NCBI GenBank assembly: GCA_030835745.1
Contig: JAUROA010000032.1
Span: 1-58,756, forward strand
Direction: 5' to 3'
Origin: Alphaproteobacteria bacterium
GTDB lineage: Bacteria; Pseudomonadota; Alphaproteobacteria; Rickettsiales; UBA1997
DNA: 58,756 nt
The translations under genes and the position numbers were made by a program. Each line of letters begins with the position of its first letter. Position 1 is the stretch's first letter. Positions 571-20,863 of the stretch are shown piece by piece. The notes under the pieces were generated by a model, which did no database searches, was not told the DNA's origin, and saw nothing but the letters and a program-made list of their open reading frames with translations.

Positions 571-650
571 TATTTTAGATCTTTAAGCAATATGTTAAGA
601 TATTATATCAAGAAGAATTTTTTTGTGCATAAAAATGCAAAAAGGAGTAA

Positions 651-1706: not shown

Positions 1707-1717
1707 TTTGTATTATT

Positions 1718-2854: not shown

Positions 2855-3020
2855 ATATAATAAATTAATAATATTAACCTGATATATACAAGTTAAATAA
2901 ATAACACTACATCATTCTATAAATTGTTATTATTGATAGCAAGTTAAATTCGCTTTAAATTAAAAAAATTAGTATTAAACTAGAAATATTGATCAATCCT
3001 AAAAAATTTAGTAAAGTCAA

Positions 3021-4025
3021 ATGTCTAACAATAATCAAGTAAATTATCGAACTGCAGGCGTTGATATTGATGCGGGTAATAAATTTGTTGAAATGATTAA
3101 GCCCTTGGTAAAAAGCACTAATCGCATTGGAGTAGATAATAATTTTGGTGGATTTGGCGCATTATTTGACATTAAAAAATGCAATTTTAGTGATCCGGTT
3201 TTGGTTTCAGCAACTGATGGGGTAGGAACCAAGCTTAAATTAGCAATTTTGGCTGATAAGCATGATACAATAGGAATTGATCTTGTGGCAATGTCGGTCA
3301 ATGATTTAGTAGTGCAGGGCGCGCAGCCATTATTTTTTCTTGATTACTTTTCTTGTTCAAAGCTTGATATAAAAAAGGCAAAAGACATTGTAAAAGGCAT
3401 TGCAGATGGCTGCAAGATGGCAAATTGCGCTTTAATAGGTGGCGAAACTGCTGAAATGCCGGGAATTTATCACAATAAAGATTATGATTTGGCTGGTTTT
3501 GCAGTTGGTGCTGTAGAAAGAGATGAAATATTGCCTAAGGTCACTCAACCAGGCGATGTTATTATAGGAATAAAATCTAGCGGTCTTCATTCTAATGGCT
3601 TTTCATTGGCGCGCTATGTCATTGATAAAAATAATATAAATTATAATTTAAAAGCCTTCGATGATAAGACTATTCTAGAGCATTTATTAACACCAACCAA
3701 AATTTATGTTAAATCTTGTTTAAAATTAATGAAAGACATTAATGTAAAAGCATTTGCTCATATAACAGGAGGTGGAATATATGAAAATATGAGTAGAGTG
3801 GTTGCTAAAAATTTAGAAATTAAGCTAGAAGAAGCGAATTTTAAAAGGCCTGAAATATTTAATTTTTTACAAAAAGAAGGTAATATTTGTAATGACGAAA
3901 TGATAAGAACTTTTAATTGTGGAATTGGTATGGTAGCAATTATTAACAAGCAAGATGTTGATAAGACATGCAAGATTTTGCAAGATTGTGGTGAAGATTG
4001 CTTAGTAATTGGTCAATTAAATTAA
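3021..4025 (+). CDS. purM: Phosphoribosylformylglycinamidine cyclo-ligase (AIR synthetase)
   Basis: YRTAGVDIDAGN at the N-terminus, plus the DGVGTKLK, LVAMSVNDL and GGETAEMPG motifs, and the expected length. Confidence 0.95.
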   Translation: MSNNNQVNYRTAGVDIDAGNKFVEMIKPLVKSTNRIGVDNNFGGFGALFDIKKCNFSDPVLVSATDGVGTKLKLAILADKHDTIGIDLVAMSVNDLVVQGAQPLFFLDYFSCSKLDIKKAKDIVKGIADGCKMANCALIGGETAEMPGIYHNKDYDLAGFAVGAVERDEILPKVTQPGDVIIGIKSSGLHSNGFSLARYVIDKNNINYNLKAFDDKTILEHLLTPTKIYVKSCLKLMKDINVKAFAHITGGGIYENMSRVVAKNLEIKLEEANFKRPEIFNFLQKEGNICNDEMIRTFNCGIGMVAIINKQDVDKTCKILQDCGEDCLVIGQLN

Positions 4026-4030
4026 TTTAT

Positions 4031-4840
4031 ATGGATAGTAAAATTTCAATTCATTTGCAGGATTTTCCAGATTTATCATTCATTGAAAATGATAGTAAAT
4101 TAGAGCAAGATATGGATTTGGTTAGGGTAATATGTTCCACTATTTTATCAATTAGAGATTTAAAAAATCTTAGAGTTAGATTGCCGTTGCAATCTCTGGT
4201 TATTATTGGCAAGAATGCCTCAAGAATAGAATCATATAGCGACATAATAACCGACGAAGTTAATGTTAAATCTCTTTCAAGCGATGATAATATTGACGAA
4301 TTTGCTGATTTAAAGCTGCAAATAAATTTTAAGAAGGTTGGGGCAAAATTTGGCTCAAAAATGAAAAAAATTATTGAAGAAGCCAGGCTCAATAATTTTA
4401 AAATAATATCTAATAATAAAATATCAATTTGCGATATTGAGCTTAAAGACGATGAATTTGACCTTAAATTAATTCCTAAAAAATTCGACTCCAATAAATA
4501 TCACATAGAATCTCTGCCAACTAATGATTACTTAATCAAATTAGATATTGAAGTTACTCAAGATCTTGAGGAAGAGGGAGTTGCTCGTGATTTAGTTAGA
4601 ATTATACAGCAAAATCGTAAAGAGGCAGATTTGGATATATCAGATAGAATAAAATTATCATTTTATGGTGATGAATATTTAACTAAGATAATTACAAAAT
4701 ATCAAAAATATATATGCCAACAGGTTTTGGCTAATGATATTGCAATTTTGCTACAACCTATATCGCAAAATATTATTTTTGAAAATGAAATCAGTAATAA
4801 GTTAATTACTATGTCAATTGCAATAGATAATGAATCTTAA
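4031..4840 (+). pseudogene. ileS: Orphan C-terminal fragment (about 270 aa) of type-2 (eukaryote-like) isoleucyl-tRNA synthetase; gene remnant or stand-alone domain
   Basis: It starts at the SIHLQDFP junction motif. It continues through RxLKNLRVRLPLQ, TDEVNVK and EEGVARDLVRIIQQNRKEADLDISDRI, the C-terminal junction/tRNA-binding region of IleRS. The roughly 800-aa catalytic, editing and anticodon part is absent and purM ends 5 nt upstream. The tracked ORF begins at 3998, but the ATG at 4031 follows the purM stop. Confidence 0.6.
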
Positions 4841-4856
4841 TTAGGATTCTATGATA

Positions 4857-5402
4857 TTATTTTATGTCAGATTTTAGATGGCTAAAAATAAAAACATCAA
4901 CCTTATTTCCAAGATGATATCTATGTTGCCTTAATGTTCCTTCAAGGGTAAAGTTGCATTTCTTCAGTAAAAATTCTGATGCTTTATTGTTGGTGGCAAT
5001 AAAGGCTTCAATGCGATTAATATTAGAGTTAAGGAAAATATATTTAGTTAATTTATTGATTGCTTGAGTCATAATTCCTTTGCCCCAATATTCTTTGGCA
5101 AGATCATAGCTTAATTCTGCTCTTTGGTGGGTATTATTGACATTATTAATACCAATTGATCCAATCATTTTATTATTTTTTTTGGTGGCAATGGCAAAAT
5201 ATATTCCCTTATTATCATAATATAAATTGCGCCAATAATATAATTCTTTTCTTGCATCTTCAATAGAGGTTATAGGGTCGCATAAGATATATTTGTTAAC
5301 ATCTGGGTCGCTAAAATAATAAAAAAAATCATTAAGATCATCTTCCTCTTGCTCTCTTAGAATATAATCATTAATATTTAATATAGGAAAATTATTTATC
5401 AT
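4857..5402 (-). CDS. GNAT family N-acetyltransferase (RimJ/RimL-like)
   Basis: 181 aa. It has the AELSYDLAKEYWGKGIMTQA acetyl-CoA-binding type segment and the RIEAFIATNNKAS and LLKKCNFTLEGTLR motifs typical of RimJ/RimL-type GNATs. Confidence 0.8.
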   Translation of the reverse strand: MINNFPILNINDYILREQEEDDLNDFFYYFSDPDVNKYILCDPITSIEDARKELYYWRNLYYDNKGIYFAIATKKNNKMIGSIGINNVNNTHQRAELSYDLAKEYWGKGIMTQAINKLTKYIFLNSNINRIEAFIATNNKASEFLLKKCNFTLEGTLRQHRYHLGNKVDVFIFSHLKSDIK

Positions 5403-5414
5403 AATTATTATTTT

Positions 5415-5969
5415 ATGGCTTTAAAATATTCACAAATGTTGGAATTAAATTCCAAAATGCCTCAATTTAATTTATTAAATAGTTGTAATAATAAATTTTT
5501 CAACTCTAATTTATTAGCAAATAATAAGGCAAAATTAATAATGGTAATTTGCAATCATTGTCCATATGTTATCCATTATCACAATGTTATTTCTATGGTG
5601 GCTGACCAATATATTGATAAAATTGAAATTATAGCTATAAGCTCAAATGATGTTATAAATTATCCGCAAGATTCAGTTTTGGAAATGGCTAAATTGGCAA
5701 AAAAATTAAATTGGCAATTTCCATATCTTTATGATAAGGATCAAAAATTAGCAAAACAATTAAAAGCTGTTTGCACTCCAGAATTTTATCTTTATAACAA
5801 AAATAATTTATTAATATATAGGGGTCGCATGGATTCTACAACAGCTGAATCAAGTGAAAAGCCAAATGGTAAAGAATTGATTAATGCAATAAAATGTTAT
5901 TTATCAAATAAAGAAATAGAATTTAAACAATATCCATCAATGGGATGCAGTATAAAATGGATTCAATAA
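5415..5969 (+). CDS. Thioredoxin-fold (redoxin/AhpC-TSA-like) protein with a CxxC motif
   Basis: The CNHCPYV motif is followed by a YPQDS segment and PEFYLY, as in thioredoxin-family thiol-disulfide oxidoreductases. Confidence 0.7.
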   Translation: MALKYSQMLELNSKMPQFNLLNSCNNKFFNSNLLANNKAKLIMVICNHCPYVIHYHNVISMVADQYIDKIEIIAISSNDVINYPQDSVLEMAKLAKKLNWQFPYLYDKDQKLAKQLKAVCTPEFYLYNKNNLLIYRGRMDSTTAESSEKPNGKELINAIKCYLSNKEIEFKQYPSMGCSIKWIQ

Positions 5970-6024
5970 AGTTTAATAATATAGCTATATGGCGTTAAAT
6001 GTAATATTTAGGTTAAAATAGTAA

Positions 6025-6762
6025 ATGCGATTTTTTGATGAAGGTATTATTATAAATGTTGTTAATTATCAAGATTCTGCAGCTATTATTAAATTATTAA
6101 CCAAAGATCACGGAATTTGTTGTGGCTTTATCAAAAATGCCAAAACAAAAAAAGCATTAAGTTTATATCAAATTGGCAATCTAATTACATTTGAATATCG
6201 CAATAGAATTGATGATAATTTGGGAAGTTTTTTTAATATTGATTTAAAGCATTCTTATTTAGCTTATATTATGTTTGAACCCCTAAAGCTCGAGATAGTT
6301 AAGCTATTATTATATATATTTGATAAATCCTTACTGGAAAGAGAAGAGCAAAATTTACTATTTTTGCAATTAATTAATTTCTTAGAAGAAATTAATGATA
6401 ATGAGATATCATTTAATGATTTTATTGCATTATATATTAAATTTGAATTAGTAATTCTTGAATCTTTGGGTTATGCTATAGATATGACTTGTTGTGTTGC
6501 AACAAATAGTAGTGCTAATTTGGCCTTTATTTCTCCAAAGTCAGCAAAAGCAGTATCAATTGAAGCGGGAAGGCCTTATGAAGATAAATTATTAAAATTG
6601 CCAAAATTTTTAATTAGCAATATATATCCTTCAAAAATAGATCTTGTTAATGGTTTTAATTTAACAGGATATTTTTTGATTAAGAATATCTTTCTTGAAG
6701 ATAAAATTTTTTATAATTTGAGGCAGAATTTATTAAAAAAAATAGATAATAATGCCGTTTAA
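6025..6762 (+). CDS. recO: DNA repair protein RecO
   Basis: 245 aa. The N-terminal OB-fold-like segment MRFFDEGIIINVVNYQDSAAIIKLLTKDHGI, the central helical region and the C-x2-C-like CCVAT segment match the RecO layout. Confidence 0.75.
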   Translation: MRFFDEGIIINVVNYQDSAAIIKLLTKDHGICCGFIKNAKTKKALSLYQIGNLITFEYRNRIDDNLGSFFNIDLKHSYLAYIMFEPLKLEIVKLLLYIFDKSLLEREEQNLLFLQLINFLEEINDNEISFNDFIALYIKFELVILESLGYAIDMTCCVATNSSANLAFISPKSAKAVSIEAGRPYEDKLLKLPKFLISNIYPSKIDLVNGFNLTGYFLIKNIFLEDKIFYNLRQNLLKKIDNNAV

Positions 6763-6802
6763 TATATAATTTTGTCAAAATTAGAGGCCAACTTTAACTT
6801 AG

Positions 6803-7600
6803 CTAAAATAATAATTTTCCAATTTCATCGATCATATTGAATTTATTATCAATAATAAGGCAAATATATAATGAAAAGCATATTGATGGTGCAAAAGGAA
6901 ATGATTCATCTTTTTTAAGAAATTGCCATAAACTGCCAAATATAAGTCCGGAAATGCCGCTTAACAACATAAATAGTAGAAAGCTATTTAATGTTAAAGC
7001 AAATCCGGCAATGAAAAAAAACTTTAAATCATCAATTCCAATTGCTTCCATAGAAGCTCCATAGTAAAAAAATAGCCATAGTCCCAAACCAAACCCTAAA
7101 TAACAAAAGCCAGATAGTAAGTTATTTGTAATATTAATTTCACCTGTCTGCATTATTATAAATATTGTTATTACTGATATTAAAAGATATTGTGATAGAT
7201 CGGGAATATAATAATGTTCTAGGTCAATTATGCACATATATATTAATATTGATGCTATAATAAAGATCAAAATTAGCTTATAATCTATAATTTGACCAAG
7301 AGAAAAAAAGCTAATATGAAAAAACAGCAAAAAAGCTAGTTCAATTAGAGGGTATCGAATAGATATTTTGCTTTTGCAATTACTACATTTGCCAAATTGT
7401 AAAATCCAAGAAAAGAGAGGAATTAAATTGTAAAATCTAAGCGCTTTATTGCATGAGGGGCATTTAGATCTTGTAAAGATAAAGCCCTGATCCTTATTAA
7501 TGCGATAAGTTAATAAACTAAAAAAACTTCCTATCATCAAAGATAAAATGCTAATTATGATTAATTGTTGATAAAGCTCCAAATCATTTAAAATGTTCAT
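6803..7600 (-). CDS. pilD: Prepilin peptidase / type IV leader peptidase (A24 family, PilD-like)
   Basis: Cys-rich N-terminal box CPSCNKALRFYNLIPLFSWILQFGKCSNCKSKISIRYPLIE, then polytopic helices with the two Asp boxes (IIDLEHYYIPD and GIDDLKFF). Confidence 0.85.
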   Translation of the reverse strand: MNILNDLELYQQLIIISILSLMIGSFFSLLTYRINKDQGFIFTRSKCPSCNKALRFYNLIPLFSWILQFGKCSNCKSKISIRYPLIELAFLLFFHISFFSLGQIIDYKLILIFIIASILIYMCIIDLEHYYIPDLSQYLLISVITIFIIMQTGEINITNNLLSGFCYLGFGLGLWLFFYYGASMEAIGIDDLKFFFIAGFALTLNSFLLFMLLSGISGLIFGSLWQFLKKDESFPFAPSICFSLYICLIIDNKFNMIDEIGKLLF

Positions 7601-7987
7601 AATTATTGATATTTAAGATATAAATTATGCAATTATAATAAAGTTCACTAAAAGTAAAATATGACAAATAGCTTTAACCATAAATAAAAAGCAATTTTAT
7701 TTAGAAATATTGATTTCTGTATCAAAATGGTTTGTAATAATTTAACTTAAATTAGTCTTCAAAGAATTTAATTCATGAATTTAATGATATAATAAACTGG
7801 TTGATGATACTTTTAAACTTATTAAAAATGGCATTAATTTAGAATATGAAGATTAAGATAAAGATAGTTTTATAAAGTAAGTATTGAGTCATAAATATAT
7901 TTGCCTTAAGTAAATTTATTTTTACTACAATTTATGATCAGAAATTTATTGCCTTAAAAGATCTTTCTCTTAATTTATATCAAATGT

Positions 7988-8018
7988 CATCTTTAAAATA
8001 ATTAAAGATTGGTTGCGG
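7988..8018. repeat. Copy of a dispersed short palindromic intergenic repeat (weaker copy)
   Basis: catctttaaaataattaaagattggttgcgg shares the CAT(C/T)TTTAAAA(T/C)AATTAAAGAT(G)G core with the copies at 20893, 26194 and 38519. Confidence 0.35.
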
Positions 8019-8055
8019 TATCTTAGATCATTGTAAAGCAATTTAGCGAGGTTAA

Positions 8056-9000
8056 TTGTCAAATATGGATAAATTATTTTTCTGTAAACTATTAATAATA
8101 TTAATTTTTTTATCGTCCTGCTCAAGAAAGCCAGCTTTAATAGTTGATCGTGGAGATTTTTTCTATAATAAAGCTAATTCTTATCGATTTAGCAAGAGTC
8201 ATGCTTCTTATACCAAGAATAAAACATTTTATATCACAATAAAACAACAAGACACATTATCGCAAATTGCTCAATTTTATGATATGGAATTAACTAAAAT
8301 TGCCAAAGCTAATAATTTGAAAGCGCCATATCGTTTAAAAATTGGTTCAAAATTAAAAATTCCAAAGAAATATACCCACAAAGTAAAAGAAGGTGATACA
8401 TTATTTAAAATATCAAAATTATATAATATTAAACTCACTAGCTTGGCAAAAATGAATAATTTAACTGAGCCATATTTTTTAAAGAAAAATCAAATATTAA
8501 ATATTGACGCCAAAGATAATAATATAGTATCAACTAGCAATAAATCTCGATATCACAAGATCAAAACTGCTAGCAATAGAAAGCTCAATAATTCAAAAAG
8601 AATTAATAAAATATTTACCAGATCAGGTGCTAAATTTTTGTGGCCAATAGACGGAAAAATTGTTTCATCATTTGGTCCAAAAAAAGGAGGTTTATATAAT
8701 GATGGTATAAATATTAAAGCTAAAAATAACCAAATTGTCAAAGCTTCGCAAGATGGGGTAGTGGCATATGTTGGTAATGAATTAAAAGGATATGGCAATC
8801 TTATAATAATAAAGCATTCAGGTGGATGGATAACGGCTTATGCTCACCTTGCTAACACCAATGTTAAAAAAGGATTTGAAGTTAGAAGGGGGCAGAAAAT
8901 TGCTGTTGCTGGAGCTTCTGGCAATGTCGATTTTAATCAATTATATTTTAGCTTAAGAAGGGGAAGAAAAGCAGTTGACCCTCAAAAATATCTTAGATAA
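8056..9000 (+). CDS. LysM-domain M23 metallopeptidase lipoprotein (NlpD-like)
   Basis: Lipobox LSSC. There are two LysM-like repeats (TLSQIAQFYDMELTKIAKANNL and TLFKISKLYNIKLTSLAKMNNL) and a C-terminal M23 core (GINIKA, GYGNLIIIKHSGGWITAYAHL). The tracked start is TTG and an ATG lies 9 nt downstream. Confidence 0.85.
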   Translation: MSNMDKLFFCKLLIILIFLSSCSRKPALIVDRGDFFYNKANSYRFSKSHASYTKNKTFYITIKQQDTLSQIAQFYDMELTKIAKANNLKAPYRLKIGSKLKIPKKYTHKVKEGDTLFKISKLYNIKLTSLAKMNNLTEPYFLKKNQILNIDAKDNNIVSTSNKSRYHKIKTASNRKLNNSKRINKIFTRSGAKFLWPIDGKIVSSFGPKKGGLYNDGINIKAKNNQIVKASQDGVVAYVGNELKGYGNLIIIKHSGGWITAYAHLANTNVKKGFEVRRGQKIAVAGASGNVDFNQLYFSLRRGRKAVDPQKYLR

Positions 9001-10159: not shown

Positions 10160-11116
10160 ATGCCAAATAGTAAGAGCGATAATTTAGAAGGTTTATTGAA
10201 AGCTGGATTAGAAGAAGATACAATATTTTTAGCCATTCATAGTCGTGATCTTGCAAGGGTAAAAAATGTATGGCAAAGAAATGATAAGGCAGAATATGAA
10301 AGACATAATCCTCCTAAAATTGGCAATAGAAAGCAACCAAATGGAGGTCAAACACCTCTTTTATATGCTGTCAATAATGGTACATTTGATATAGTTAAAT
10401 TTATATGTGATAATTCTAAAACATTATTAGATGAGCCGGATTATGGTGGTGTTACGCCTCTAATTGCTGCATGTGAAAAAGGTTCTAAAGAAATTGTTAG
10501 TTTTCTAATTAACAGCCGTGCCGATCGTAATAAATGTAGGATAGAAGATGGATTTAGGGCTTTGGAAGTTGCAATAGGTAGAGGTGATGTTTTTAATCCT
10601 GAAGAGTTGAGTAAATTATTAAAAGCCGGAGCTGATTTTGAAAAAGGGTCTGTAACGTCAAAATTTACTCCGCTTCAAGTTGCAATAAAAAGAAATAATA
10701 TAGATGCATTAAATTTCTTATTATCTAAATTATGTCCCAATAATTCTAAATTGGACAATGAAAATGCTATTTCTTCAATTAAAACTGCAATAGATGTTGA
10801 TAATTTAGAAGCAATAAAATTATTAATGCCAAACTTGAATGTCCAAGAATTTAATCCAAGACAAGTTAATCAAATAAGCAAATTAATTGAAAAAAAAGGA
10901 AACATAAACACTGAAATTAAATTCTTAATAGAAAATTATATCAACTCTCAAACACCTTCTACTGGTAAGCGTAAAGAAAGAGAAGATGAAGCAAAATCAG
11001 GTCAAGGTGATATAGGAAGTCGACCTGGTAGGAGTTTTAATCTATCTCAAGAGTCAAGAGTTACAATTGAATCTTTAACCGGTGGATCTGAAACTCATAA
11101 AAGTAGGGAAACTTAG
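10160..11116 (+). CDS. Ankyrin-repeat protein (candidate secreted effector)
   Basis: Several ANK repeats are present: GQTPLLYAVNNGTFDIVKFI, GVTPLIAACEKGSKEIVSFLINSRADRN and FTPLQVAIKRNNIDALNFLL. The C-terminal tail is disordered and contains a basic patch GKRKERED. Confidence 0.85.
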   Translation: MPNSKSDNLEGLLKAGLEEDTIFLAIHSRDLARVKNVWQRNDKAEYERHNPPKIGNRKQPNGGQTPLLYAVNNGTFDIVKFICDNSKTLLDEPDYGGVTPLIAACEKGSKEIVSFLINSRADRNKCRIEDGFRALEVAIGRGDVFNPEELSKLLKAGADFEKGSVTSKFTPLQVAIKRNNIDALNFLLSKLCPNNSKLDNENAISSIKTAIDVDNLEAIKLLMPNLNVQEFNPRQVNQISKLIEKKGNINTEIKFLIENYINSQTPSTGKRKEREDEAKSGQGDIGSRPGRSFNLSQESRVTIESLTGGSETHKSRET

Positions 11117-11910: not shown

Positions 11911-12513
11911 ATGACAAATTATAATTTTATTACCTTTGAAGGTATTGAAGGATGTGGTAAATCAACTCAAGTAAAATTGCTTCAAGAATTTTTTCAAGAA
12001 AAAAATATAAAATCTATTACCACAAGAGAGCCTGGAGGAGTGGCAATTTCAGAAAAAATTAGAGATATTTTAATAAATAGCGACAATATTAGTCCAAAAA
12101 CCGAGTTACTTCTTAATTTTGCTGCAAGAATTGAGCATATTAATAACCTTATTAAGCCAAATTTACAAAGTAACCGAAAGGTAATATGTGATCGTTTCTT
12201 TGACTCAACACTTGCTTATCAAGGTTTTGCAATGGGTTTGAAAATTTCAGAGATATTGCAAATTAAAGAAATTGCTATAGCTAATTTTAAGCCAGATATA
12301 ACTTTTTTGCTTGATATGGATGTTGAAAAAGCTTTTTTAAGAATCAAAAATCGTGCCGATAATAATCGCTATGATGCAATGTCTATTGATTTTCATAATA
12401 AGGTTAGAAGAGGCTTTTTAGAGATTGCTAAGCAAAATAATAATAGGATAATAATTATTGATGCTAATCGCTCAAAAGAACAAATTTTTCAACAAATTAT
12501 TGCTAAATTATGA
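11911..12513 (+). CDS. tmk: Thymidylate kinase
   Basis: FITFEGIEGCGKSTQ P-loop, the TREPGG motif and the DRFFDSTLAYQG (DRY-like) motif. Confidence 0.92.
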   Translation: MTNYNFITFEGIEGCGKSTQVKLLQEFFQEKNIKSITTREPGGVAISEKIRDILINSDNISPKTELLLNFAARIEHINNLIKPNLQSNRKVICDRFFDSTLAYQGFAMGLKISEILQIKEIAIANFKPDITFLLDMDVEKAFLRIKNRADNNRYDAMSIDFHNKVRRGFLEIAKQNNNRIIIIDANRSKEQIFQQIIAKL

Positions 12514-12596
12514 CAAAAAAATCTTATTATAAAGCATTCTCTTTAGTTGAGATATCGGTAACTATTTTAATTTTTTCTTTTTTATTGGCAATTGTT
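12510..12596 (+). other. Class III (prepilin) signal sequence plus N-terminal hydrophobic helix
   Basis: KA|FSLVE has Phe at +1 and Glu at +5, with Ala instead of the usual Gly at -1. Confidence 0.6.
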
Positions 12597-13373
12597 CAAT
12601 ATGGTGTTGGTTTTTATCAGGAGTCGCAAATAGTTAAAGCAAAAGCACATAGTAAAAATGCTCCAATGAATCATATGTCAAATTTGATAATATGGTATGA
12701 AACTTCTTTAGAAGATAATTTTAAAGAACAAAATATTGCCGATTCTCAAGATATTGAAATATGGTATAATAGAGCGCCAAATTATTGGCATCAAAATAAT
12801 GCTACTCAATATAATATTGCCAATAGGCCAATTTATAAAGAAAAAGTTTTGAATGAAACGATCTCAGCTTTATATTTTGATGGCTCTGACGATTTCTTAA
12901 ATTTTGATGCAAATTTACTAATTAACTCTGATTTTAGTTTTATAGTTGTTGAAACTAGACTTAGGGGAGATAATCACGACTATTATATTGGTGGGTTGGG
13001 TGGTTCGAGTCAAAATTTCCATATGGGCTATAGCACGCCAACAACTGCCAGATTTGGCATTTATGGCTCTGCTATTGCAGATTATACAATAAGTGATTAT
13101 TCAACTCCAATTGCACGCATTAATAGCTTTATATTTAGCAAGCAATCTGGTTCTAAATTTTGGATTAATGGTGGAGTCCAGCCTAAGGGTACTAATAGTA
13201 TCGCAAATTATCTATCATCATATCAGGGGGCAAGAATTGGTGATACTGAAAATGCTTATTTTTATCAAGGATATATTGCTGAGATGATTGTTTTTAATAA
13301 AGCGTTAAATAACCAAGAAAGGCAAGATATAGAGAAATATTTGAGCAATAAATTTAATATTAAATTAGATTAG
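12510..13373 (+). CDS. Prepilin-type (class III signal) protein with a single LamG/ConA-like lectin module; small modular pilin/pseudopilin
   Basis: N-terminus MTKKSYYKA|FSLVEISVTILIFSFLLAIV is a 9-aa basic leader, then F+1 and E+5, then a hydrophobic helix. The body shares IEIWYN, NATQ, RPIY, LYFDGSDDFL and YQGYIAEMIVFNKALNNQERQDIEKYLSNKF with the repeats of the downstream giant gene. The start overlaps the tmk stop (ATGA). Confidence 0.7.
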   Translation: MTKKSYYKAFSLVEISVTILIFSFLLAIVQYGVGFYQESQIVKAKAHSKNAPMNHMSNLIIWYETSLEDNFKEQNIADSQDIEIWYNRAPNYWHQNNATQYNIANRPIYKEKVLNETISALYFDGSDDFLNFDANLLINSDFSFIVVETRLRGDNHDYYIGGLGGSSQNFHMGYSTPTTARFGIYGSAIADYTISDYSTPIARINSFIFSKQSGSKFWINGGVQPKGTNSIANYLSSYQGARIGDTENAYFYQGYIAEMIVFNKALNNQERQDIEKYLSNKFNIKLD

Positions 13374-13424
13374 TAATTTTAGCTATCGATTAAATAGATT
13401 CTGGATAATTGTTATATTTTAATT

Positions 13425-13456
13425 CTATTGTCAAATTATAACAATAGCTTTTTTTA
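13425..13456 (+). terminator. Possible weak intrinsic terminator between the two pilin-like genes
   Basis: ctattgt-(9 nt)-acaatag is a perfect 7-bp inverted repeat followed by cttttttta. The stem is AT-rich, so this is weak. Confidence 0.3.
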
Positions 13457-13531
13457 TAATGATATATCTGGTAAATAGATTTTAAAAGAAATTAGATATT
13501 TAAAATTAAGTGAAACTAATTTATTAAAGGG

Positions 13532-13618
13532 GTGCGCAACATAAATTTAAAGTCAGCATTTGGTATAATTGAGCTTAGTATAATATTAACTGTTATATCA
13601 ATAATCATTGCTGTTGTC
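13532..13618 (+). other. Class III (prepilin) signal sequence plus N-terminal hydrophobic helix of the giant protein
   Basis: 9-aa basic leader MRNINLKSA, then FGIIE (F+1, E+5) and about 20 hydrophobic residues. The layout is the same as in the 12510 gene. Confidence 0.6.
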
Positions 13619-16600
13619 ACTTCAACAAAAGTTGTTGAAAAGAAAGTTGAAACTGTTGGGTCTGTTACTGTTAGTTTAGATAAATTTGTTGATGCTATTT
13701 CGCAATTTGCCAGCTCCAATAAAAGATTTCCATGTCCGGCTTCAATTGAATCCAAGCCATCAGACGCTAATTTTGGTAAAGAGCAATTTGACAATTCAAA
13801 TGATGACAAAACATTGCATCAATGTTCTGGAGCTGGAATTTTCTTTGGAGAGGGTTCGCCAGAAGCGCAGAATTTAGTATATGGCATGTTGCCAATTAAT
13901 GATTTGGGCTTGAGTATTTCAGCTGCATCCGATTCTTTTGGTGCAAAATTGGTCTATATAGTTGATAAAAGATTAGCAAGAGACAACGGAATTGCGAATA
14001 ATTATGATTCTGACCCAATTATAAATCTTGAAAATAAAGTAACTAATACATCGCAGCTACTTGATTTTATTGTCATTAGCTATGGTTCTAACAAAAATAA
14101 CGCATATAATTTAAATAGTATCTCAAAAAATAATGCTTCAATCATTGAAGATGAGATAAGTAATCAACTCATTTCAGCGTCAGGTACAAATTTTGATAAT
14201 AATTTTGTAAAAAGTTCAAATGATAAAAAGTTTGATGATATTATAGTTGGGGGTAAAAAATATGAAATCATCAAGGAATTCAGCATGGAAGATGTTATAA
14301 GATGCGAGCAGCATAGTGATTTTTTATATGGTATTAATATGGTGTGGAATAGTGATGGATCGGCTAGATCTGGAGAAATTATTGCTTCTGACACACCTTG
14401 CCCAAGCAATTTTAGTTATGGCCCTACCAATGCTTATAAAAGATGTGTTAATGGTATTTGGGGAGATGTTGAAGTTGGTTGTAAAGCTGCTCCATCATGT
14501 TATGTTAGTATAGAAGGGGTAGAGCCGCAAATTGTTGATATTGGATCAGGAACTTTGCCATGCTCACTTCGTGGATATTCAGGTTCAATAAATTATAATT
14601 GCAATGAATTAGTTGAAGGCGTTTCTGCTTCTGGTCAAGTAACAGAAGGGTATGATGGCGATCTAATTATTAATGGTTCTTGTAGCAATATAGGCGATGG
14701 TTGCTATATTGAAGATGTTTTAGGTATTGATAATCGTACAGTTATATACGGAGTTAATAAAGCTGGATCATCAGGCACTATTCAATGTCGCGAAGGTTTT
14801 ACAGGATCTCTAACTTATGATTGTCAGTGCACTTTGGGTGGAAGTTTTACTGAGCATTGCCCAAGAAATTGCCCATGTACTGGTAAGTATAAAATAGGAG
14901 AATATCCTTCTGTACATTCAAATGGAATTAGTGGAATGGTTCTTGATAGTGGTGTTAAAATTACAGTTTATAGCGGTGGTAGTTTTACAGGCTCAACTGC
15001 AGTATTTACATCAACACAAAATAATTGTTCTAATGGATGGAATGATAGAGTCAGAAGTTATAAATTTGAAATGATCAATGGCATTTGTCCTGAAACTAAT
15101 ATTAATTTATCAGTTACAGATTCATGCGCTATTTCAACATTGCCTGATTTTTCATCTGTAATTGATGCCAAAATTGGTGATCAGTCTGAATTAGACAATA
15201 TTGAGTCAAATATTAAATTATGGCTAGATGCATCTAATATTGACGGCAATAATAATAGATATGTTAAAAATGGTCAAAAAATTAATAAATGGTATGATTT
15301 AAGTGGTAATAATTATAATGCTACTCAAGATACTGAATCATATAGACCTACTTATGATGGAGCCTCGTTTATATTTGATGGCTCTAATGATCATTTCACT
15401 TTGCCAAATATTTTTGCTGGTACTAGTCAGGCAACTGGAATTATTGTAATTAAGGATAAAGAGCTTTCAACAGCTGCAAGAAATATGGCGCACTGGGATT
15501 TCGGTAATTATGGCCAAGTCATGAATGTTTATGGTGGGGGATGTTGTAGACAAGTTTATGATAATTTTGGAATGAGCTCTAGGCCTCTAACTGTAAGTGA
15601 TATTCAAAAAAACAACGAAACTCAGATATATATAATTCAAAATGATGGGTCTAATTTTACTAGCTATATGGATGGTCAATTTGGTATTTCAGCAAGTAGT
15701 GGTGGATATAATATGAGATCAAACCCTTTGATTGGTAAAGGTTGGGGTAGCTCTAATACAAGTGGGTCTGCTTACTTTAAAGGTGAAATTAAAGAAATTA
15801 TTATGTTTGATAAAATTCTTTTAAGTAAAGAAAGATACATCATAACTCATTATTTATCAAAAAAATGGGGGCTTGAAGATTTTGTTGATAGTGATGGTGA
15901 TGGTGTTGTTGATAGTCTCGATGATACCCCCTATGGAGAGTCTAGGATTATTTTTTCAGAAGCAATTACCCAAGAAATTGGTGATTTGGCAGGAGATTTA
16001 TCTCATTTAAATGCTAATTTAAAATTATGGCTAGATGCTCAAAATACAAATGACGATAGTAATAGAGGTTTGATTGATGGTTCTGCAATTGCGCAGTGGA
16101 ATGACCTTAGTGGTAATAATTATCACCTCGCTCAAAGTTCATCAGGTTACAGGCCTGTAATTAATTCTGAGTCAGGAAAGGATTATGTAGATTTTGTTTC
16201 AAATGATTTTTTAACAACTAATCTAAGTCAAGGTTTTAGCGACCTAAATGGAGAAGATAGGACTATTATAGTATTATTCAAGCAAGAAGAGGTTGCAGAT
16301 AATCCTTATGCAGGATCTGGAATAATATCTACAAGGCCATATGGTAATCAAAGTCTTGGTTTTACATTTTCAGTAAAAAATAATCAAACAGCTTTTGCTT
16401 ATAGTAGAGAGCAATCATCATCTGAGGTAATTTCTAATGATATTATGGCATTAAATCAATTTCATATTTTGTCATTTAGAACTACAAAAAATGATCAACA
16501 AATTTTAAAAGAAGGAAAAGTTATTGCTCAAGAGTTGCTAGATGTGTGGGATATACAAAATAGTGGCAATTTAGTGCTAGGAAAAGAAAGGCATGCAGAG

Positions 16601-19600
16601 TTACAATATGGCTATAAATTTCATGGTAAAATTGCCGAAGTGATAATTTTTGACAAAAAGATTTCAGATGAAGATTTATATAAAATAAATCATTATTTAG
16701 CTAAAAAATGGGGGCATGAATCTTCATTAGATAGCGATGGTGACGGGGTGGTTGATAGTCTTGATGAAAATCCAACATCTCATTTAATTCTTCATTTTAC
16801 ATTTGACAATACTAATATTTCTGAAATTGGTGATTATAAGATAATTTCATATGATGAACAAAATCCCGATATACTAACTTATAACTTATCTAACTCAAGA
16901 GATTTAACTCCTGTATTATTCAAGCATAATGAATATTATTCAACGGCCGGATCCCCAACTAATCCGTCAGACTTTTTTAAACTTAATAAAGATTTAGATT
17001 TAAGAAATTACCCTAAATTTTCAATAAGCTTTTGGGCCATGGCTAATAGTGATATTGACGGACAAGCCTTAACGGGTGGTAGTGAAAAATATTCTAGACT
17101 ATTTAATATGAGAAAACAATCTCATGGCTATATAGGATATCAAAATACTAATATTGGAATTTTGTATGATAATTGGCAAAATAACACTCCATTTAATCAG
17201 AGATGGGTACAGAAAGCTTATTATAGAGGTGATGGCAGTTGGAGCTATTTAGAATCAAATAATTTTGCAATGGATTTTAGGAATTGGGTACATTATGCTT
17301 TTACTTTCGACATGGATAATGACTATATAGCCTTTTACAAGAATGGTCAATTAAATGGTTATCATAATACTTCAAATAATTATTCGGATCTATATCCATA
17401 TTTTCACCTGGGATCGCATGGTGCATCCCATGGAGATGGTCAAAGATCATATTTTGATGATTTTAGAATTTATTCAGTAGCTTTAACTGCCAGTGAGGTT
17501 GAAGCAATATATAATGCCACAGATAAGATCACATTGCAAGATAAGATATTATATTATGGCAATGGTGTTGATGGCGATGTGACTATTAATTCTGGAAATA
17601 TTAACACCACATCATATATTGTTGGCAGGACAGCTCCTGATGGCGAAGCATTTAGTGTTGAGGCTATTGATGTTAATAAAATTTCTGTTAAAGGAGTTGG
17701 AACTGGTGGTACCTCATCTTCTAATGTAGCAAATTCATTTAAAGTTGGAGATATCTTGCTATTAATAAATATGAGGGGAGATGCTAATAATTTCGACAAT
17801 GTTGGTAATTATGAATTTGTTAAAGTTCAAGGAGTTGAACAAAATAATATTACTATTAATGGTCAAATTAAGAAAATTTATGGCCTTTCTGATAATTCAG
17901 ATTTAACTAGTCAATCTGTTATGATTCAAAGAGTTCCGCAATATGATAATTTATATTTAAATGGTGATATCACGGTTCAAGATTGGGATGGTCAGGTTGG
18001 TGGTATTTTGGCAGTAAAAGTAAAAAATATTTTAGTTAATAATACTAGTATTGATGTTAGTAAAAAAGGTTATAGAGGTGGTGCTAGAGTTGATGGAGGA
18101 AGTGCACCATATGGGCTTCAAGGTGAATCAATATCTGGTCAAACTAATATTATGATTAATAGCAATAATCAGGGTGGCGGCGGTGGTGGAATTTCATGCA
18201 GCCATGCAGCTGGTGGTGCTGGAGGTGGTTATGGCTCAAATGGAGCTAATGGCTCTAATGGAAATAGTTGCTCACCTGGAGGAACGGCAGGTTTGGCATA
18301 TGGAGAAAATAGCTTTCCATCTAAAATTTTTTTGGGATCAGGAGGTGGATCAGGAGGTGAAGATAATAGAGAGCCAGAATCATGGGCGGGTCCAGGTTTT
18401 AAAGGTGGTGATGGTGGAGGCATAATAATGATCTATGCTAATAATATCACGATCAATAGTGGTGCTAATTTTATTGCTAATGCAGAAAATGGAGAGTCAA
18501 GAGGATCTGCCTATGGTCAAGATGGCGGAGGTGGAGGAGGGGGCTCTGGAGGTAGTATTAATATTGTTACAAATAATTATAATGGTAGCTTAAATTATCA
18601 AATAAATGGTGGCTCTGGAGGATCGGTTGACACTAATGGAGATGGTGGCGCCGGAGGGGCTGGAAGGTTTAAATTATCATCGCAAATTGCTGAATTAGAT
18701 ATTGCAGATAGTAATTTGGCATATTCTTTTGATATTTTATCTTTAGGATCAAAAATATCCTTATGGCTTGATGCCACAAATATTGATGGTTACGATAATT
18801 CAACTTTAAGTGACGGTGATAAAATAAGTAGTTGGAAAAATCTTGCTAAGTCTAATGCTTTAACACAAACCAATATCTCTAACCAGCCTACCTTGGTTGA
18901 AGGTTATCTAAATCAAAAGCCAGCTGTAAAATTTGATAGATCTTCAAAACATTTTCTGCAAGATTTAAGTTTTAGCGAAAATCTTAACACAATTTTCTTT
19001 GTTTATAAGCCAAATAATGATATAAATAAAAGTACTTCTTCATGTGGCGGTATTAATTTTAATCAAAATAGTAATATTGCCTTGTGGTTTGGCTCTGTAA
19101 CAGAGCATCTAAATGATGAGATATTATCATTTAATAGTGGAAATCCATTAGAAGCCTGGGTCGCTCCTAATGAAGAAGCTATATCAAGTCAAAATGCTAA
19201 TATTTTTGCAGTAAGATATAGTGGTAGTAACATGAATCTTTATTATAATGGCATTATAAAAAATAATGCAGTTAGAACAGAAAATGTGCACGAATACACA
19301 ACTAACGGTATCAAATTATCGCAATCAACTGCTCTTAATAATGATTTATGCTATCTCGATGGTTATATAGCAGAGCTAATTATTGTTAATCAAGCATTAA
19401 CTAATGATGAGTTTAACAGAATTAACTATTATTTATCATATAAATGGGGCTTGATGGATGTTGTTGATAGTGACGCAGATTCATTAATTGACTCTGCAGA
19501 TTCTTTTCCTTTAAAGTCAGATGGAGAAGTGTTGGTAAGAAGTATCCCTCCTAAATTATGGTTAGATTCTAAAAATATCGATGGTCAAAATAATTTGACT

Positions 19601-20863
19601 ATTTCAGGAGCAATTTCATCTTGGTATGATTTAAGTGGTAATTCTTACAATGTAACTCAGTCTTCAACGTCAAACCAGCCATCATATGATGGTGCAGGGG
19701 TGTATTTTGATGGCTCAAATGATTATATGTGGACAGAATCTTTGGAAAGCCTTAATGAGGCTACAATATTTGCAGTTCTTGATTTAGGAAATATTGATTT
19801 TAGCGGCAATAACGCTGGCGGGGGCGCTGTTACAATCCAGCAGCAAGGAGTTGATAATTTTGATTCAATAGTATATCATGAAAGAAGCGATGCTGATAGA
19901 AAATTTATGCATGGATCTAGTTACTTTCAAAGGACTTATGTTTCATCTGTAGCTGAAGTTGATACTGGGCCATTTATTTATCAATATCAAATAAAGAGTG
20001 GCGAATTTGCAATATATAGAAATGGAGTGTTAGTAGGTCAAGCTACTTATAGCTCTACAAATAAACCAAATACAAGATTTATATTAGGCAATAGACATTT
20101 ATCAGGAACTAGCCCTACTAGTAATGGATATTGGTTTGGAAGAATTTATGAAACAATTATATTAAATCGCAAAGTTACAGATGAAGAGAGATCTAAAATT
20201 ACACATTATCTTGCAAGTAAATGGAATTTATCAGGAGAAGTTGATAGTGATTCAGATGGTGTTGTTGATAATATTGATGATAATCCATTAGTAGCATCAG
20301 GGTCATCATGTGATACTTCTCAAGTATCAAGAATAAATAATCCAGATTTTTTCTATCGATATGGTTCATATACTACTGGTAGTAGTTACTCATTAAATAA
20401 CTGGACATTATCATCTTCGATTGGAACATGGAGCAATGAGGGTTTAAATTCAATATTAACAACACCAGAAAATTTTGGCAGATATGGTAATAATGGTGAA
20501 AATAATTGCTGTAATGTAACATATCCTAGGGCTGCTGGTTTTACCAGAAATAATCCAACCATAACAATTGCCATGGATAAGCAATATTATATTTCAGAAT
20601 TTGAATGGTATGGGGTAAATGGTATTCACGGATCGAGGAGGAATGCAAAAGATGTTTTAATGCAGGGCTCCAATGATAATGCTACATGGGTTGATTTATT
20701 ATCATTTCAACTTCCCGAATTAGCAAGTTGGGATACGGCATCGAGATTTACTCTTGATAATCCAGGAAGTTATCAATATGTTCGATTTATTGTTAGCTAT
20801 AGTTGGGGAGATGCCAATTCAACAAAAATTGGCACCATATATTTGTTTGGCCCAGATTGCTAA
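13532..20863 (+). CDS. Giant (2443 aa) prepilin-signal protein: multi-LamG lectin-like adhesin with Sushi-like, beta/gamma-crystallin-like, TSP3-type Ca-binding, glycine-rich and C-terminal discoidin-like modules
   Basis: A single uninterrupted ORF with a GTG start preceded by aaagggg. N-terminus MRNINLKSA|FGIIELSIILTVISIIIAVV. Five LamG-type modules follow the pattern LWLDA.N, W.DLSGN, Q, RP, FDG, F.G.I.E.I.F, YL..KWG. Four acidic linkers (three D-x-D-x-DG-x-x-D, one degenerate), a G-rich block and a Cys-to-Cys terminal domain are also present. Confidence 0.75.
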   Translation: MRNINLKSAFGIIELSIILTVISIIIAVVTSTKVVEKKVETVGSVTVSLDKFVDAISQFASSNKRFPCPASIESKPSDANFGKEQFDNSNDDKTLHQCSGAGIFFGEGSPEAQNLVYGMLPINDLGLSISAASDSFGAKLVYIVDKRLARDNGIANNYDSDPIINLENKVTNTSQLLDFIVISYGSNKNNAYNLNSISKNNASIIEDEISNQLISASGTNFDNNFVKSSNDKKFDDIIVGGKKYEIIKEFSMEDVIRCEQHSDFLYGINMVWNSDGSARSGEIIASDTPCPSNFSYGPTNAYKRCVNGIWGDVEVGCKAAPSCYVSIEGVEPQIVDIGSGTLPCSLRGYSGSINYNCNELVEGVSASGQVTEGYDGDLIINGSCSNIGDGCYIEDVLGIDNRTVIYGVNKAGSSGTIQCREGFTGSLTYDCQCTLGGSFTEHCPRNCPCTGKYKIGEYPSVHSNGISGMVLDSGVKITVYSGGSFTGSTAVFTSTQNNCSNGWNDRVRSYKFEMINGICPETNINLSVTDSCAISTLPDFSSVIDAKIGDQSELDNIESNIKLWLDASNIDGNNNRYVKNGQKINKWYDLSGNNYNATQDTESYRPTYDGASFIFDGSNDHFTLPNIFAGTSQATGIIVIKDKELSTAARNMAHWDFGNYGQVMNVYGGGCCRQVYDNFGMSSRPLTVSDIQKNNETQIYIIQNDGSNFTSYMDGQFGISASSGGYNMRSNPLIGKGWGSSNTSGSAYFKGEIKEIIMFDKILLSKERYIITHYLSKKWGLEDFVDSDGDGVVDSLDDTPYGESRIIFSEAITQEIGDLAGDLSHLNANLKLWLDAQNTNDDSNRGLIDGSAIAQWNDLSGNNYHLAQSSSGYRPVINSESGKDYVDFVSNDFLTTNLSQGFSDLNGEDRTIIVLFKQEEVADNPYAGSGIISTRPYGNQSLGFTFSVKNNQTAFAYSREQSSSEVISNDIMALNQFHILSFRTTKNDQQILKEGKVIAQELLDVWDIQNSGNLVLGKERHAELQYGYKFHGKIAEVIIFDKKISDEDLYKINHYLAKKWGHESSLDSDGDGVVDSLDENPTSHLILHFTFDNTNISEIGDYKIISYDEQNPDILTYNLSNSRDLTPVLFKHNEYYSTAGSPTNPSDFFKLNKDLDLRNYPKFSISFWAMANSDIDGQALTGGSEKYSRLFNMRKQSHGYIGYQNTNIGILYDNWQNNTPFNQRWVQKAYYRGDGSWSYLESNNFAMDFRNWVHYAFTFDMDNDYIAFYKNGQLNGYHNTSNNYSDLYPYFHLGSHGASHGDGQRSYFDDFRIYSVALTASEVEAIYNATDKITLQDKILYYGNGVDGDVTINSGNINTTSYIVGRTAPDGEAFSVEAIDVNKISVKGVGTGGTSSSNVANSFKVGDILLLINMRGDANNFDNVGNYEFVKVQGVEQNNITINGQIKKIYGLSDNSDLTSQSVMIQRVPQYDNLYLNGDITVQDWDGQVGGILAVKVKNILVNNTSIDVSKKGYRGGARVDGGSAPYGLQGESISGQTNIMINSNNQGGGGGGISCSHAAGGAGGGYGSNGANGSNGNSCSPGGTAGLAYGENSFPSKIFLGSGGGSGGEDNREPESWAGPGFKGGDGGGIIMIYANNITINSGANFIANAENGESRGSAYGQDGGGGGGGSGGSINIVTNNYNGSLNYQINGGSGGSVDTNGDGGAGGAGRFKLSSQIAELDIADSNLAYSFDILSLGSKISLWLDATNIDGYDNSTLSDGDKISSWKNLAKSNALTQTNISNQPTLVEGYLNQKPAVKFDRSSKHFLQDLSFSENLNTIFFVYKPNNDINKSTSSCGGINFNQNSNIALWFGSVTEHLNDEILSFNSGNPLEAWVAPNEEAISSQNANIFAVRYSGSNMNLYYNGIIKNNAVRTENVHEYTTNGIKLSQSTALNNDLCYLDGYIAELIIVNQALTNDEFNRINYYLSYKWGLMDVVDSDADSLIDSADSFPLKSDGEVLVRSIPPKLWLDSKNIDGQNNLTISGAISSWYDLSGNSYNVTQSSTSNQPSYDGAGVYFDGSNDYMWTESLESLNEATIFAVLDLGNIDFSGNNAGGGAVTIQQQGVDNFDSIVYHERSDADRKFMHGSSYFQRTYVSSVAEVDTGPFIYQYQIKSGEFAIYRNGVLVGQATYSSTNKPNTRFILGNRHLSGTSPTSNGYWFGRIYETIILNRKVTDEERSKITHYLASKWNLSGEVDSDSDGVVDNIDDNPLVASGSSCDTSQVSRINNPDFFYRYGSYTTGSSYSLNNWTLSSSIGTWSNEGLNSILTTPENFGRYGNNGENNCCNVTYPRAAGFTRNNPTITIAMDKQYYISEFEWYGVNGIHGSRRNAKDVLMQGSNDNATWVDLLSFQLPELASWDTASRFTLDNPGSYQYVRFIVSYSWGDANSTKIGTIYLFGPDC
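14303..14482 (+). other. Sushi/CCP-like four-cysteine module
   Basis: C258-x31-C290-x14-C305-x11-C317 with NGIW after the third Cys. The spacing and the Trp resemble complement control protein modules. More C..G[YF].G...Y.C modules follow up to about 14880. Confidence 0.4.
14881..15072 (+). other. Beta/gamma-crystallin-like Greek-key segment
   Basis: ITVYSGGSFTGSTAVF fits [YFW]-x4-[FY]-x-G, and NDRVRSYKF follows downstream. Confidence 0.4.
15215..17525 (+). repeat. Three consecutive LamG/ConA-like jelly-roll modules (about 15215-15886, 16019-16729, 16781-17525) separated by TSP3-type acidic linkers
   Basis: Modules 1 and 2 start with KLWLDA and end with YL.KKWG plus DSDGDGVVDSLD (15887..15925 and 16730..16768). 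Module 3 is the Laminin_G_3 style (LHFTFDN, SISFWA, DDFRIYSVALTASEVEAIYN). Confidence 0.65.
17548..18690 (+). other. Glycine-rich, probably beta-helical insert
   Basis: GNGVDGDVTINSGNINT is followed by runs such as NQGGGGGGISCSHAAGGAGGGYGSNGANGSNG, GSGGGSGGED, DGGGGGGGSGGSINIV and GGSGGSVDTNGDGGAGGAG. Confidence 0.5.
18755..20242 (+). repeat. Two further LamG/ConA-like modules (about 18755-19465 and 19550-20242) with acidic linkers
   Basis: SLWLDATNIDG to YIAELIIVNQALTNDEFNRINYYLSYKWGL plus DSDADSLIDSAD (19466..19501). KLWLDSKNIDG to RIYETIILNRKVTDEERSKITHYLASKWNL plus DSDSDGVVDNIDD (20243..20281). Confidence 0.65.
20309..20860 (+). other. C-terminal discoidin (F5/8 type C)/galactose-binding-like domain bounded by Cys residues
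   Basis: It begins at Cys2260 and ends at the terminal Cys2443. The YVRFIVSYSWGD and TIYLFG strands resemble discoidin-fold domains, and eukaryotic FA58C domains are closed by a disulfide between their first and last Cys. Confidence 0.45.

Follow-up and report, generated by a model that had tools for sequence, protein, structure and literature searches.

In this study, we analysed a stretch of 58,756 nucleotides (nt) of DNA (contig JAUROA010000032.1 of assembly GCA_030835745.1, positions 1 to 58,756; hereafter the window) from an alphaproteobacterium placed by GTDB in the Rickettsiales (UBA1997), with particular attention to two adjacent genes that follow the thymidylate kinase gene tmk. Our analyses suggested that the products of both genes, a small protein of 287 amino acids (aa; 12510..13373, +, ATG start) and a giant protein of 2443 aa (13532..20863, +, GTG start), are modular pilins, and we consider it probable that they enter a type IV filament as minor pilin-type subunits, the filament being either a type IVa-like pilus or a pseudopilus resembling that of the type II secretion system (T2SS). 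The original prediction, which was made from the window's letters, had described two adjacent same-strand open reading frames (ORFs) with prepilin-type signals and LamG modules, and both are present as described. It had also reported that tmk (11911..12513, +) and the small gene overlap, and the ATGA at 12510..12513, in which the tmk stop codon overlaps the ATG of the small gene, can indeed be read in the sequence.

In a class III signal, a short hydrophilic leader with Gly or Ala as its last residue precedes a hydrophobic stretch (PMC10191384); behind the cleavage site we looked for a run of 20–25 mostly hydrophobic residues, in which Glu frequently stands at +5. Both proteins start with a basic leader of nine residues, the last of them Ala, followed by F-x-x-x-E and 21–26 hydrophobic residues. 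The small protein begins MTKKSYYKA/FSLVEISVTILIFSFLLAIV and the giant MRNINLKSA/FGIIELSIILTVISIIIAVV, where the slash marks the cleavage predicted after Ala9; the leaders are encoded at 12510..12536 and 13532..13558 (both +), and the mature proteins would start with FSLVE(+5)ISVTILIFSFLLAIV and FGIIE(+5)LSIILTVISIIIAVV, respectively, each including a hydrophobic stretch of the expected kind. A scan of all window ORFs for the prepilin motif matched these two only. Across 17 homologues of the small protein, A9, F10, S11, L12 and E14 are invariant, and among 150 representatives of the family defined by the N-terminus of the giant, Ala occupies position −1 in 123 and Gly does so in 15, position +1 is F or Y, and Glu stands at +5 in 138. 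E14 is invariant or nearly so in the alignments of both families. The restriction of position −1 to an interchange of Ala and Gly agrees with what the published definition demands (PMC10191384). Such conservation across the homologues of both families upheld the prepilin-type signals that had been proposed, and genuine class III processing of the two proteins is predicted with high confidence.

Profile searches, which had been suggested as a check, gave a divided answer. The small protein scored 19.4 bits with Pfam N_methyl (PF07963; cut-off 21.2) and 15.1 bits with TIGR02532 (cut-off 16.3), and the giant itself showed no N_methyl or TIGR02532 match in Pfam and NCBIfam scans, including a segment-wise Pfam scan. 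On the other side, its syntenic orthologue P0019 passed the N_methyl gathering threshold with 22.5 bits, two other members of the same family passed with 28.8 and 22.9 bits, and 56 of 69 aligned family members matched N_methyl at E<=0.01.

Further indications that the giant belongs to the pilins came from its N-terminal part, which we call the carrier pilin module (13559..14494, +). It comprises an alpha1 helix (residues 10–63) and a family-specific head that reaches to residue 321 and ends in a Cys-rich, sushi/HRM-like subdomain. A word-indexed homologue search with residues 1–321 returned nothing, and an exhaustive phmmer search with the same residues (E<=1e-3) recovered 2455 representative clusters. 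Most of these are stand-alone proteins of 300–350 aa and derive from metagenomes, and the genes of the family often stand in tandem clusters of 2–4 prepilin genes, like minor-pilin operons. When the family profile was compared with all PDB sequences, it matched essentially type IV pilins and GspG only (best E 8.5e-7, Streptococcus sanguinis PilE1), and the family Phe at profile position 14 aligned on residue 1 of the mature PDB pilins. T2SSG was matched by one of the 69 aligned members (E 0.0087). The AlphaFold2 (AF2) model of residues 1–321 (predicted local distance difference test score, pLDDT, 89.7; predicted template modelling score 0.81) showed a 52-residue helix (12–63) and a beta-rich head, and the "lollipop" arrangement of an approximately 50-residue alpha1 with a globular head was found in this model as well as in that of the small protein. 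Since the head has no significant fold relative in PDB and matched no Pfam model in the segment scan, it represents an uncharacterised pilin head family. By the published definition, a modular pilin joins an N-terminal pilin module to one or more domains that are non-specific to pilus biology (Raynaud et al., 2021, PMC8179133), and both window proteins show this composition. The view of the giant as an extreme modular pilin thus gained support from the carrier family, the profile and the predicted fold, and its N-terminal ~320 residues can be read, from alignment and model, as a dedicated carrier pilin module onto which adhesive modules have been grafted.

The small protein is built more simply. 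Its Laminin_G_3 (PF13385) score of 23.6 bits lies below the cut-off of 27.6, and its AF2 model (pLDDT 81) consists of a helix (12–49) with a beta-sandwich directly after it. With E values from 3e-8 to 1e-6, Foldseek matched this model to ConA-like lectin domains, including trans-sialidase lectin domains, CBM40, the botulinum neurotoxin Hc domain and S. sanguinis PilC (7oa7, E 9e-7), so that the single LamG module ascribed to it, sub-threshold by Pfam, was supported by fold matches; the model suggests an alpha1 fused directly to one LamG module. Neither the small protein nor the giant matched T2SSG in Pfam, and no pseudopilin head model was found on them, although one member of the cluster at least 90% identical to the small protein carries the JGI label "pseudopilin PulG". 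Comparison of the profiles of the two proteins revealed that they share the signal and the N-terminal part of alpha1 (alpha1N) only, over 41 columns, and because nothing beyond these is shared, the two derive from different pilin families and are not paralogues in their pilin parts. The earlier description of the small protein as a paralogue of the giant therefore does not hold for these parts; what they have in common is alpha1N and the type of module.

The proposal that the small protein is a partner of the giant fared better. The order tmk, small gene, carrier pilin gene is kept in three other lineages (L062, L093 and L105), with identities of 69, 42 and 35% for the small protein and with a different cargo on the carrier. 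This conserved adjacency, the sole and an indirect line of evidence, suggests that the small protein is the conserved neighbour of the giant and probably its partner in a tip complex. In more distant freshwater metagenome-assembled genomes (MAGs), genes of the small family are either solitary, with housekeeping genes around them, or present in tandem copies. As a separate observation, tandem pilin genes were present in several freshwater relatives (L009 8137..11757, L012 6618..9371, L011 2461..9744; also L044, L045, L049, L063–L066 and L077), in which the small LamG-pilin family had been amplified to 3–4 tandem copies, with versions of 740–784 aa, and prepilin genes of the carrier family stood in tandem groups of 2–4. 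Beside a homologue of the small pilin in another freshwater MAG, we observed a fragment of a VirB4/TrbE-type ATPase of type IV secretion systems (L006, 42..1562), which is consistent with an rvh-type system in those lineages.

Behind the carrier module, the giant carries a long series of modules. The whole protein scored 77.9 bits with Laminin_G_3, above the cut-off, and five segments matched it singly. Five copies of the module of the small protein had been claimed; there are five LamG modules, but only four of them (about residues 557–785, 826–1065, 1740–1983 and 2006–2235) are of the small-protein type, with 21–25% identity to the small protein, LWLDA...NATQ motifs and, at the C-terminus, a helix that closes with YL..KW, and the fifth is a generic Laminin_G_3 domain. 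Behind each module of the small-protein type stands an Asp-rich linker resembling DSDGDGVVDSLD, and these linkers probably bind Ca and stiffen the string of modules. Directly after the carrier lies a Cys-rich region (residues 322–540; 14495..15151, +) with 14 Cys and no Pfam match, for which phmmer against PDB sequences gave weak matches to microbial beta-gamma-crystallins (E 0.011–0.36); it possibly includes a beta-gamma-crystallin-like unit. The many Cys of the giant are consistent with folding outside the cytoplasm. Then follow, all on the forward strand, LamG 1 (15200..15886; linker at 15887..15922) and LamG 2 (16007..16726; linker at 16730..16765), both of the small-protein type, and the generic LamG 3 (residues 1085–1335; 16784..17536), which scored 41.3 bits with Laminin_G_3 as a segment alone. 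A Gly-rich region similar to AgmC_N and Gly_rich_2 (17783..18685) separates LamG 3 from LamG 4. It scored 96.4 bits with the NCBIfam model gliding_AgmC_N, and because this is far under the cut-off of 275, we take it as similarity only; orthologues and family members of the giant carry Pfam Gly_rich_2, and the region is probably a beta-helix. LamG 4 (18749..19480; linker at 19466..19501) and LamG 5 (19547..20236; linker at 20243..20278), again of the small-protein type, precede a C-terminal discoidin-like (F5/8 type C) module (20333..20860), which scored 27.7 bits with F5_F8_type_C against a cut-off of 28.2. A phmmer search of this C-terminal region against PDB sequences gave no match, and the same module stands directly behind the carrier in P0018, a family member of 556 aa.

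The surroundings of the pair are conserved, and the cargo is not. The window and the marine MAG GCA_002335845.1 share the order pilD, LysM/M23, ftsY, the short-chain dehydrogenase/reductase (SDR) gene, tmk, small gene, large pilin gene, mdh and penicillin-binding protein gene, and the large pilin of this marine MAG has 820 aa. At the conserved tmk–mdh locus the cargo-bearing protein measures 496, 820 or 2443 aa by lineage, and carries TSP1 in the first, LamG with a Gly-rich region in the second, and five LamG modules, a beta-helix and a discoidin-like module in the third. Elsewhere the carrier is fused to seven LamG modules, to Gly_rich_2, to TSP1 or to the discoidin-like end of the 556-aa protein; the protein with seven LamG modules (GenBank MFC1659029.1, 2087 aa) is annotated only as a LamG-like protein. 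Different cargo on one carrier matches the grafting pattern described for modular pilins. It is tempting, if rather speculative, to picture, for uncultured aquatic alphaproteobacteria of Rickettsiales-like type, a pared-down and genomically scattered type IV filament machine in which the carrier is a dedicated minor pilin, lineages swap and expand its cargo at the tmk–mdh locus, and the small LamG pilin is an obligatory tip partner. If this were true, the giant would be the largest subunit of the pilin pathway known, and the filament a hypervariable organelle with which the cells attach to hosts or particles.

Cognate machinery was to be expected if the signals are processed, and a prepilin peptidase gene of the bifunctional PilD/GspO type was found in the window (265 aa; 6803..7600, −), with 92.9 bits for Pfam A24_N_bact and 38.4 bits for Peptidase_A24, both above their cut-offs. 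In its product, the methylase zinc site has its four Cys (CPSC...CSNC), and DLEHYYIPD and GIDDLKF are present as the two Asp motifs, both of which are kept in a 56%-identical orthologue of the marine MAG GCA_002335845.1; the gene lies about 5 kb upstream of the pair, in synteny conserved with that MAG. Scans of the window revealed nothing else related to pili or T2SS beyond the peptidase and the pair. Three congeneric contigs (L033, L036 and L037), which are syntenic with the right end of the window at 81–91% nucleotide identity over the aligned stretches, carry a platform gene of the GspF/PilC family (399 aa) between def and bioD. The platform protein matches PF00482, scores 250 bits with TIGR02120 (below the equivalog cut-off of 424) and is 99.5% identical between the congeneric contigs, and a 57-kb Tara scaffold holds the platform gene together with a fragment of the giant gene adjoining mdh. 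The search for machinery was thus positive for a peptidase in the window, which goes some way to answer the refuting condition of the original prediction, and for a platform gene in congeners, but negative for ATPase and secretin in the window and in the flanks of close relatives. A regular-expression search for the GspE/PilB Walker A and secretin motifs over the homologue loci found an ATPase only in the distant locus L110, where a relative with a T2SSE–T2SSF operon has a pilin that passes both N_methyl and T2SSG (23.6 bits). A pooled Pfam scan of 114 ORFs neighbouring homologues, reported as the 25 commonest families, was uninformative on machinery. Scattered genes are normal for type IVa pilus systems (PMC10191384), and there are reports of type IV pilus components from basal as well as aquatic Rickettsiales (PMC9352585; PMC10847448). 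As to the L110 locus itself (115..8729, 57% GC), it encodes T2SSE with an MshEN domain, T2SSF, ORFs of 502, 200, 138 and 836 aa that match no Pfam family, and a pilin related to the carrier family at its end, and it may represent an uncharacterised type IV filament system.

On these grounds we infer a course of cleavage, polymerisation, tip location, partnership and ligand binding. The class III signal would insert each protein into the inner membrane, where the neighbouring peptidase would remove the 9-residue leader after Ala9 and probably N-methylate Phe10. Alpha1 would then dock the subunit into a filament. A tip complex would be its most likely place, since the shaft has no room for so bulky a cargo, the argument being the same as for S. 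sanguinis PilB and PilC. At the tip the giant would display a flexible string of lectin-type modules, with its Cys-rich region, five LamG modules, Gly-rich beta-helix and discoidin-like end, and the small protein would sit beside it as its partner. Such an array would most likely serve lectin-type attachment, and the glycans that it binds could be those of a eukaryotic host, of prey cells or of particles. We hold display on a filament to be somewhat better than an even bet for both proteins, and put the chances for and against a function in glycan or host adhesion at about equal.

Several findings count against the two proteins being filament subunits. The N_methyl scores of both are sub-threshold or absent, and Foldseek returned nothing significant for the carrier head against PDB, the best match being a type IVb pilin of enterotoxigenic Escherichia coli (ETEC) at E 0.55. 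The processed giant, at about 260 kDa, is far above any pilin shown to be assembled, and a protein of this size would have to pass through a secretin. Neither an extension ATPase (PilB/GspE) nor a secretin, PilMNOP/GspLM or a major pilin was found in the window or in the flanks of its close relatives, and the platform gene lies about 5 kb beyond the end of the window in congeners, where the window's own contig does not reach. Given that ATPase, secretin and major pilin did not turn up in these places, filament display is something that we infer. Giant LamG-rich adhesins that use other export routes are common, and together with the N_methyl scores of the window proteins this might indicate that the N-termini are uncleaved signal anchors or Sec look-alikes, and the proteins conventional surface adhesins outside the pilin pathway. 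Such an origin would hardly account for the retention of A or G at −1, F or Y at +1 and E at +5 across hundreds of diverged homologues, for a family profile that matches pilins exactly in register with the mature N-terminus, or for a syntenic prepilin peptidase gene; Pfam scans of the window proteins also revealed no C-terminal feature of type I secretion, autotransporter or sortase type, and we regard this explanation as improbable. The main alternative accepts the signal and holds that it serves membrane insertion and PilD processing only, and that the proteins remain unpolymerised, anchored by alpha1N or released, as adhesins or binding proteins without a filament, comparable to the sugar-binding proteins of archaea that carry class III signals. 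The restriction of the observed machinery to a peptidase and the platform gene of congeners, the solitary position of genes of both families among housekeeping genes in relatives and the extreme size of the giant would all suit it. What makes it unlikely in our judgement is that the platform gene is conserved in congeners, and we know of no role of a GspF/PilC platform protein outside filament assembly; that alpha1 is conserved over about 50 residues, beyond its membrane-spanning part; that the tandem multi-pilin clusters look like sets of minor pilins; and that in a diderm cell a lectin array anchored in the inner membrane would be unable to reach external ligands.

One may object that a 7.3-kb ORF in a repeat-rich region arose by misassembly or belongs to a pseudogene in decay, as many assemblies break within it. 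An independent assembly (DRR337548) differs from the window by one synonymous base over the 8354 nt of the pair, and congeneric marine contigs hold collinear and uninterrupted fragments of the gene, one of at least 2275 aa with 67–76% identity and one of 451 aa with 87% identity; such agreement argues that the ORF is no artefact. A population variant of the giant gene shows eight synonymous and four non-synonymous changes, which likewise speaks against decay, and the objection carries next to no weight. The uninterrupted ORF of the original prediction is accordingly borne out both by this assembly and by the diverged relatives. As to its start, the GTG is the sole start codon downstream of an in-frame TAA two codons upstream, and it is backed by the similar N-terminus of the syntenic marine-MAG orthologue, MKIIKSKKSAFSLIELS. 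Contigs L002–L004, L027–L032, L038 and L039, from assemblies of several samples, stop within the giant gene or where the window has its left end, which suggests repeats or population variation at these places; the contigs with the exact window sequence share its left end, and a 71.6-kb JGI contig extends it to the right by about 2 kb only. Recent horizontal transfer of the two-gene module was also considered, with a GC content of 0.30–0.35 against 0.24–0.32 elsewhere in the window, and was dropped, because Gly-rich coding can explain the higher GC. A scan for promoters and terminators gave 77 sites against 58 expected and is uninformative in such AT-rich DNA.

The architecture of the pair has known counterparts. 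In an InterPro survey, the combination IPR012902+PF13385 was the commonest modular-pilin architecture (229 of 1219 proteins, with one LamG domain each), nine proteins had two LamG domains and four had four LamG domains with PF05345 (Raynaud et al., 2021, PMC8179133, Dataset S1), and the extreme modular pilin highlighted there had 860 aa (PMC8179133). These catalogued N_methyl + PF13385 pilins belong to the same architecture class as the window pair. They were, however, found through an InterPro N_methyl match, which neither window protein reaches; none was reported at the size of the giant, and the carrier described here is a distinct 320-aa module with an unmodelled head. The closest characterised relative in design is S. 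sanguinis PilC, a lectin pilin that has been studied structurally and functionally together with its small partner pilin (PDB 7oa7/7oa8; PMC9934059). The window pair resembles it in the class III signal, the unusually short pilin moiety, the ConA-like lectin module, a small partner pilin encoded nearby and the proposed tip complex. PilC differs in that its host is a monoderm, its processed form has 52.8 kDa and it carries an extra Ig-like module; no sequence relationship is detectable beyond alpha1N and the fold class, and glycan binding has been shown for PilC, whereas the window pair is known from its sequence and models. ETEC CofB, T2SS GspK and Thermus ComZ (PMC8179133) likewise add extra domains to a pilin module, with a tip position predicted or shown, but their domains are others, they have about 350–550 aa, and no homology to the head or cargo of the giant was found.

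Very large modular adhesins also sit on the minor-pilin tip complex in the case of PilY1/PilC of type IVa pili and MshQ of mannose-sensitive haemagglutinin (MSHA) pili, a functional analogy. PilY1, however, does not belong to the pilins, its defining feature being a C-terminal beta-propeller (IPR008707), whereas the giant is an adhesin fused to a pilin module; Pfam and NCBIfam scans of the pair revealed no PilY1 beta-propeller and no MSHA family, although the presence of an MshQ model in the library was not confirmed, and scans of the window revealed no msh genes. In PilV of IncI plasmids, a constant pilin part is combined with C-terminal adhesin parts that are swapped by a shufflon and set the binding specificity (see also PMC9045228). 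The likeness lies in a constant N-terminal pilin part with interchangeable C-terminal adhesin parts; PilV, however, varies by site-specific recombination within one genome, while here the cargo differs between lineages, and no shufflon was seen, none having been sought.

Against this background, the word "undescribed" in the original prediction is too strong, because LamG modular pilins have been catalogued and S. sanguinis PilC has been characterised; homologous giants are also present in GenBank (MFC1659029.1, 2087 aa). Literature searches on LamG minor pilins and on MshQ with LamG retrieved nothing, and we found no paper that describes the carrier-pilin family. What appears, as far as can be read from the sequences, to be new beyond the catalogue is the size of 2443 aa, a carrier family with an unmodelled head, the prevalence of Ala at −1 (123 of 150) and lineage-specific cargo near pilD. 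Modular pilins are the current explanation for the functional diversity of simple type IV filaments, and the few examples studied are small; with a subunit of about 260 kDa, one would learn how large a protein can be and still be primed into a filament and pass a secretin. The carrier module, for its part, defines a large family (the 2455 representative clusters) that has neither a domain model nor a structural relative. Type IV pili have been proposed to serve extracellular host attachment in Rickettsiales (PMC10847448), and the locus is a variable adhesin candidate for uncultured near-Rickettsiales alphaproteobacteria that could mark host or particle specificity.

Exact or near-identical copies of the window contig occur in sediment, marine and other metagenomes, the exact sequence being present in DRR337548/9, ERR514705, ERZ27296377 and JGI 3300040856. 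The DnaK encoded in the window is about 81% identical to those of MAGs named Rickettsiales, Rickettsiaceae, Pelagibacterales or Alphaproteobacteria, which gives a coarse placement only. A reduced, host-associated organism had been assumed. This is no more than suggested: the copies come from the metagenomes just named, and genes for purine and thiamine synthesis and for glutamate dehydrogenase are encoded beside ankyrin proteins. An NAD-specific glutamate dehydrogenase of 1610 aa (39399..44231, +) is encoded together with pntA, purD, purM and thiE, and these genes indicate an organism whose metabolism is less reduced than that of classical Rickettsiales.

One ankyrin-repeat gene of the window (10160..11116, +) appears to be an insertion, because the marine MAG, although otherwise syntenic, lacks it and has ftsY and the SDR gene as direct neighbours. 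An ORF cut by the right end of the window (57730..58716, −) aligns with ankyrin-repeat proteins of 972–1227 aa in relatives, and the two ankyrin genes give a hint of host interaction. Next to purM stands a separate ORF of 280 aa (3998..4840, +) with DUF5915 and a weak Anticodon_1 match, which is the counterpart of the C-terminal portion of a class I tRNA ligase and is a gene of its own in other assemblies too. Finally, a protein of 406 aa (53387..54607, +) matches no Pfam family, contains a near-perfect internal duplication, HDIVSNSANDLLEELKD[QK]QGN, and ends in C-V-I-S, which resembles a CaaX prenylation box. In some congeners its slot between the atpC/FixS genes and dnaK is occupied by ORFs of 249 and 219, 462 or 492 aa, and this slot looks like a hypervariable, effector-like locus.

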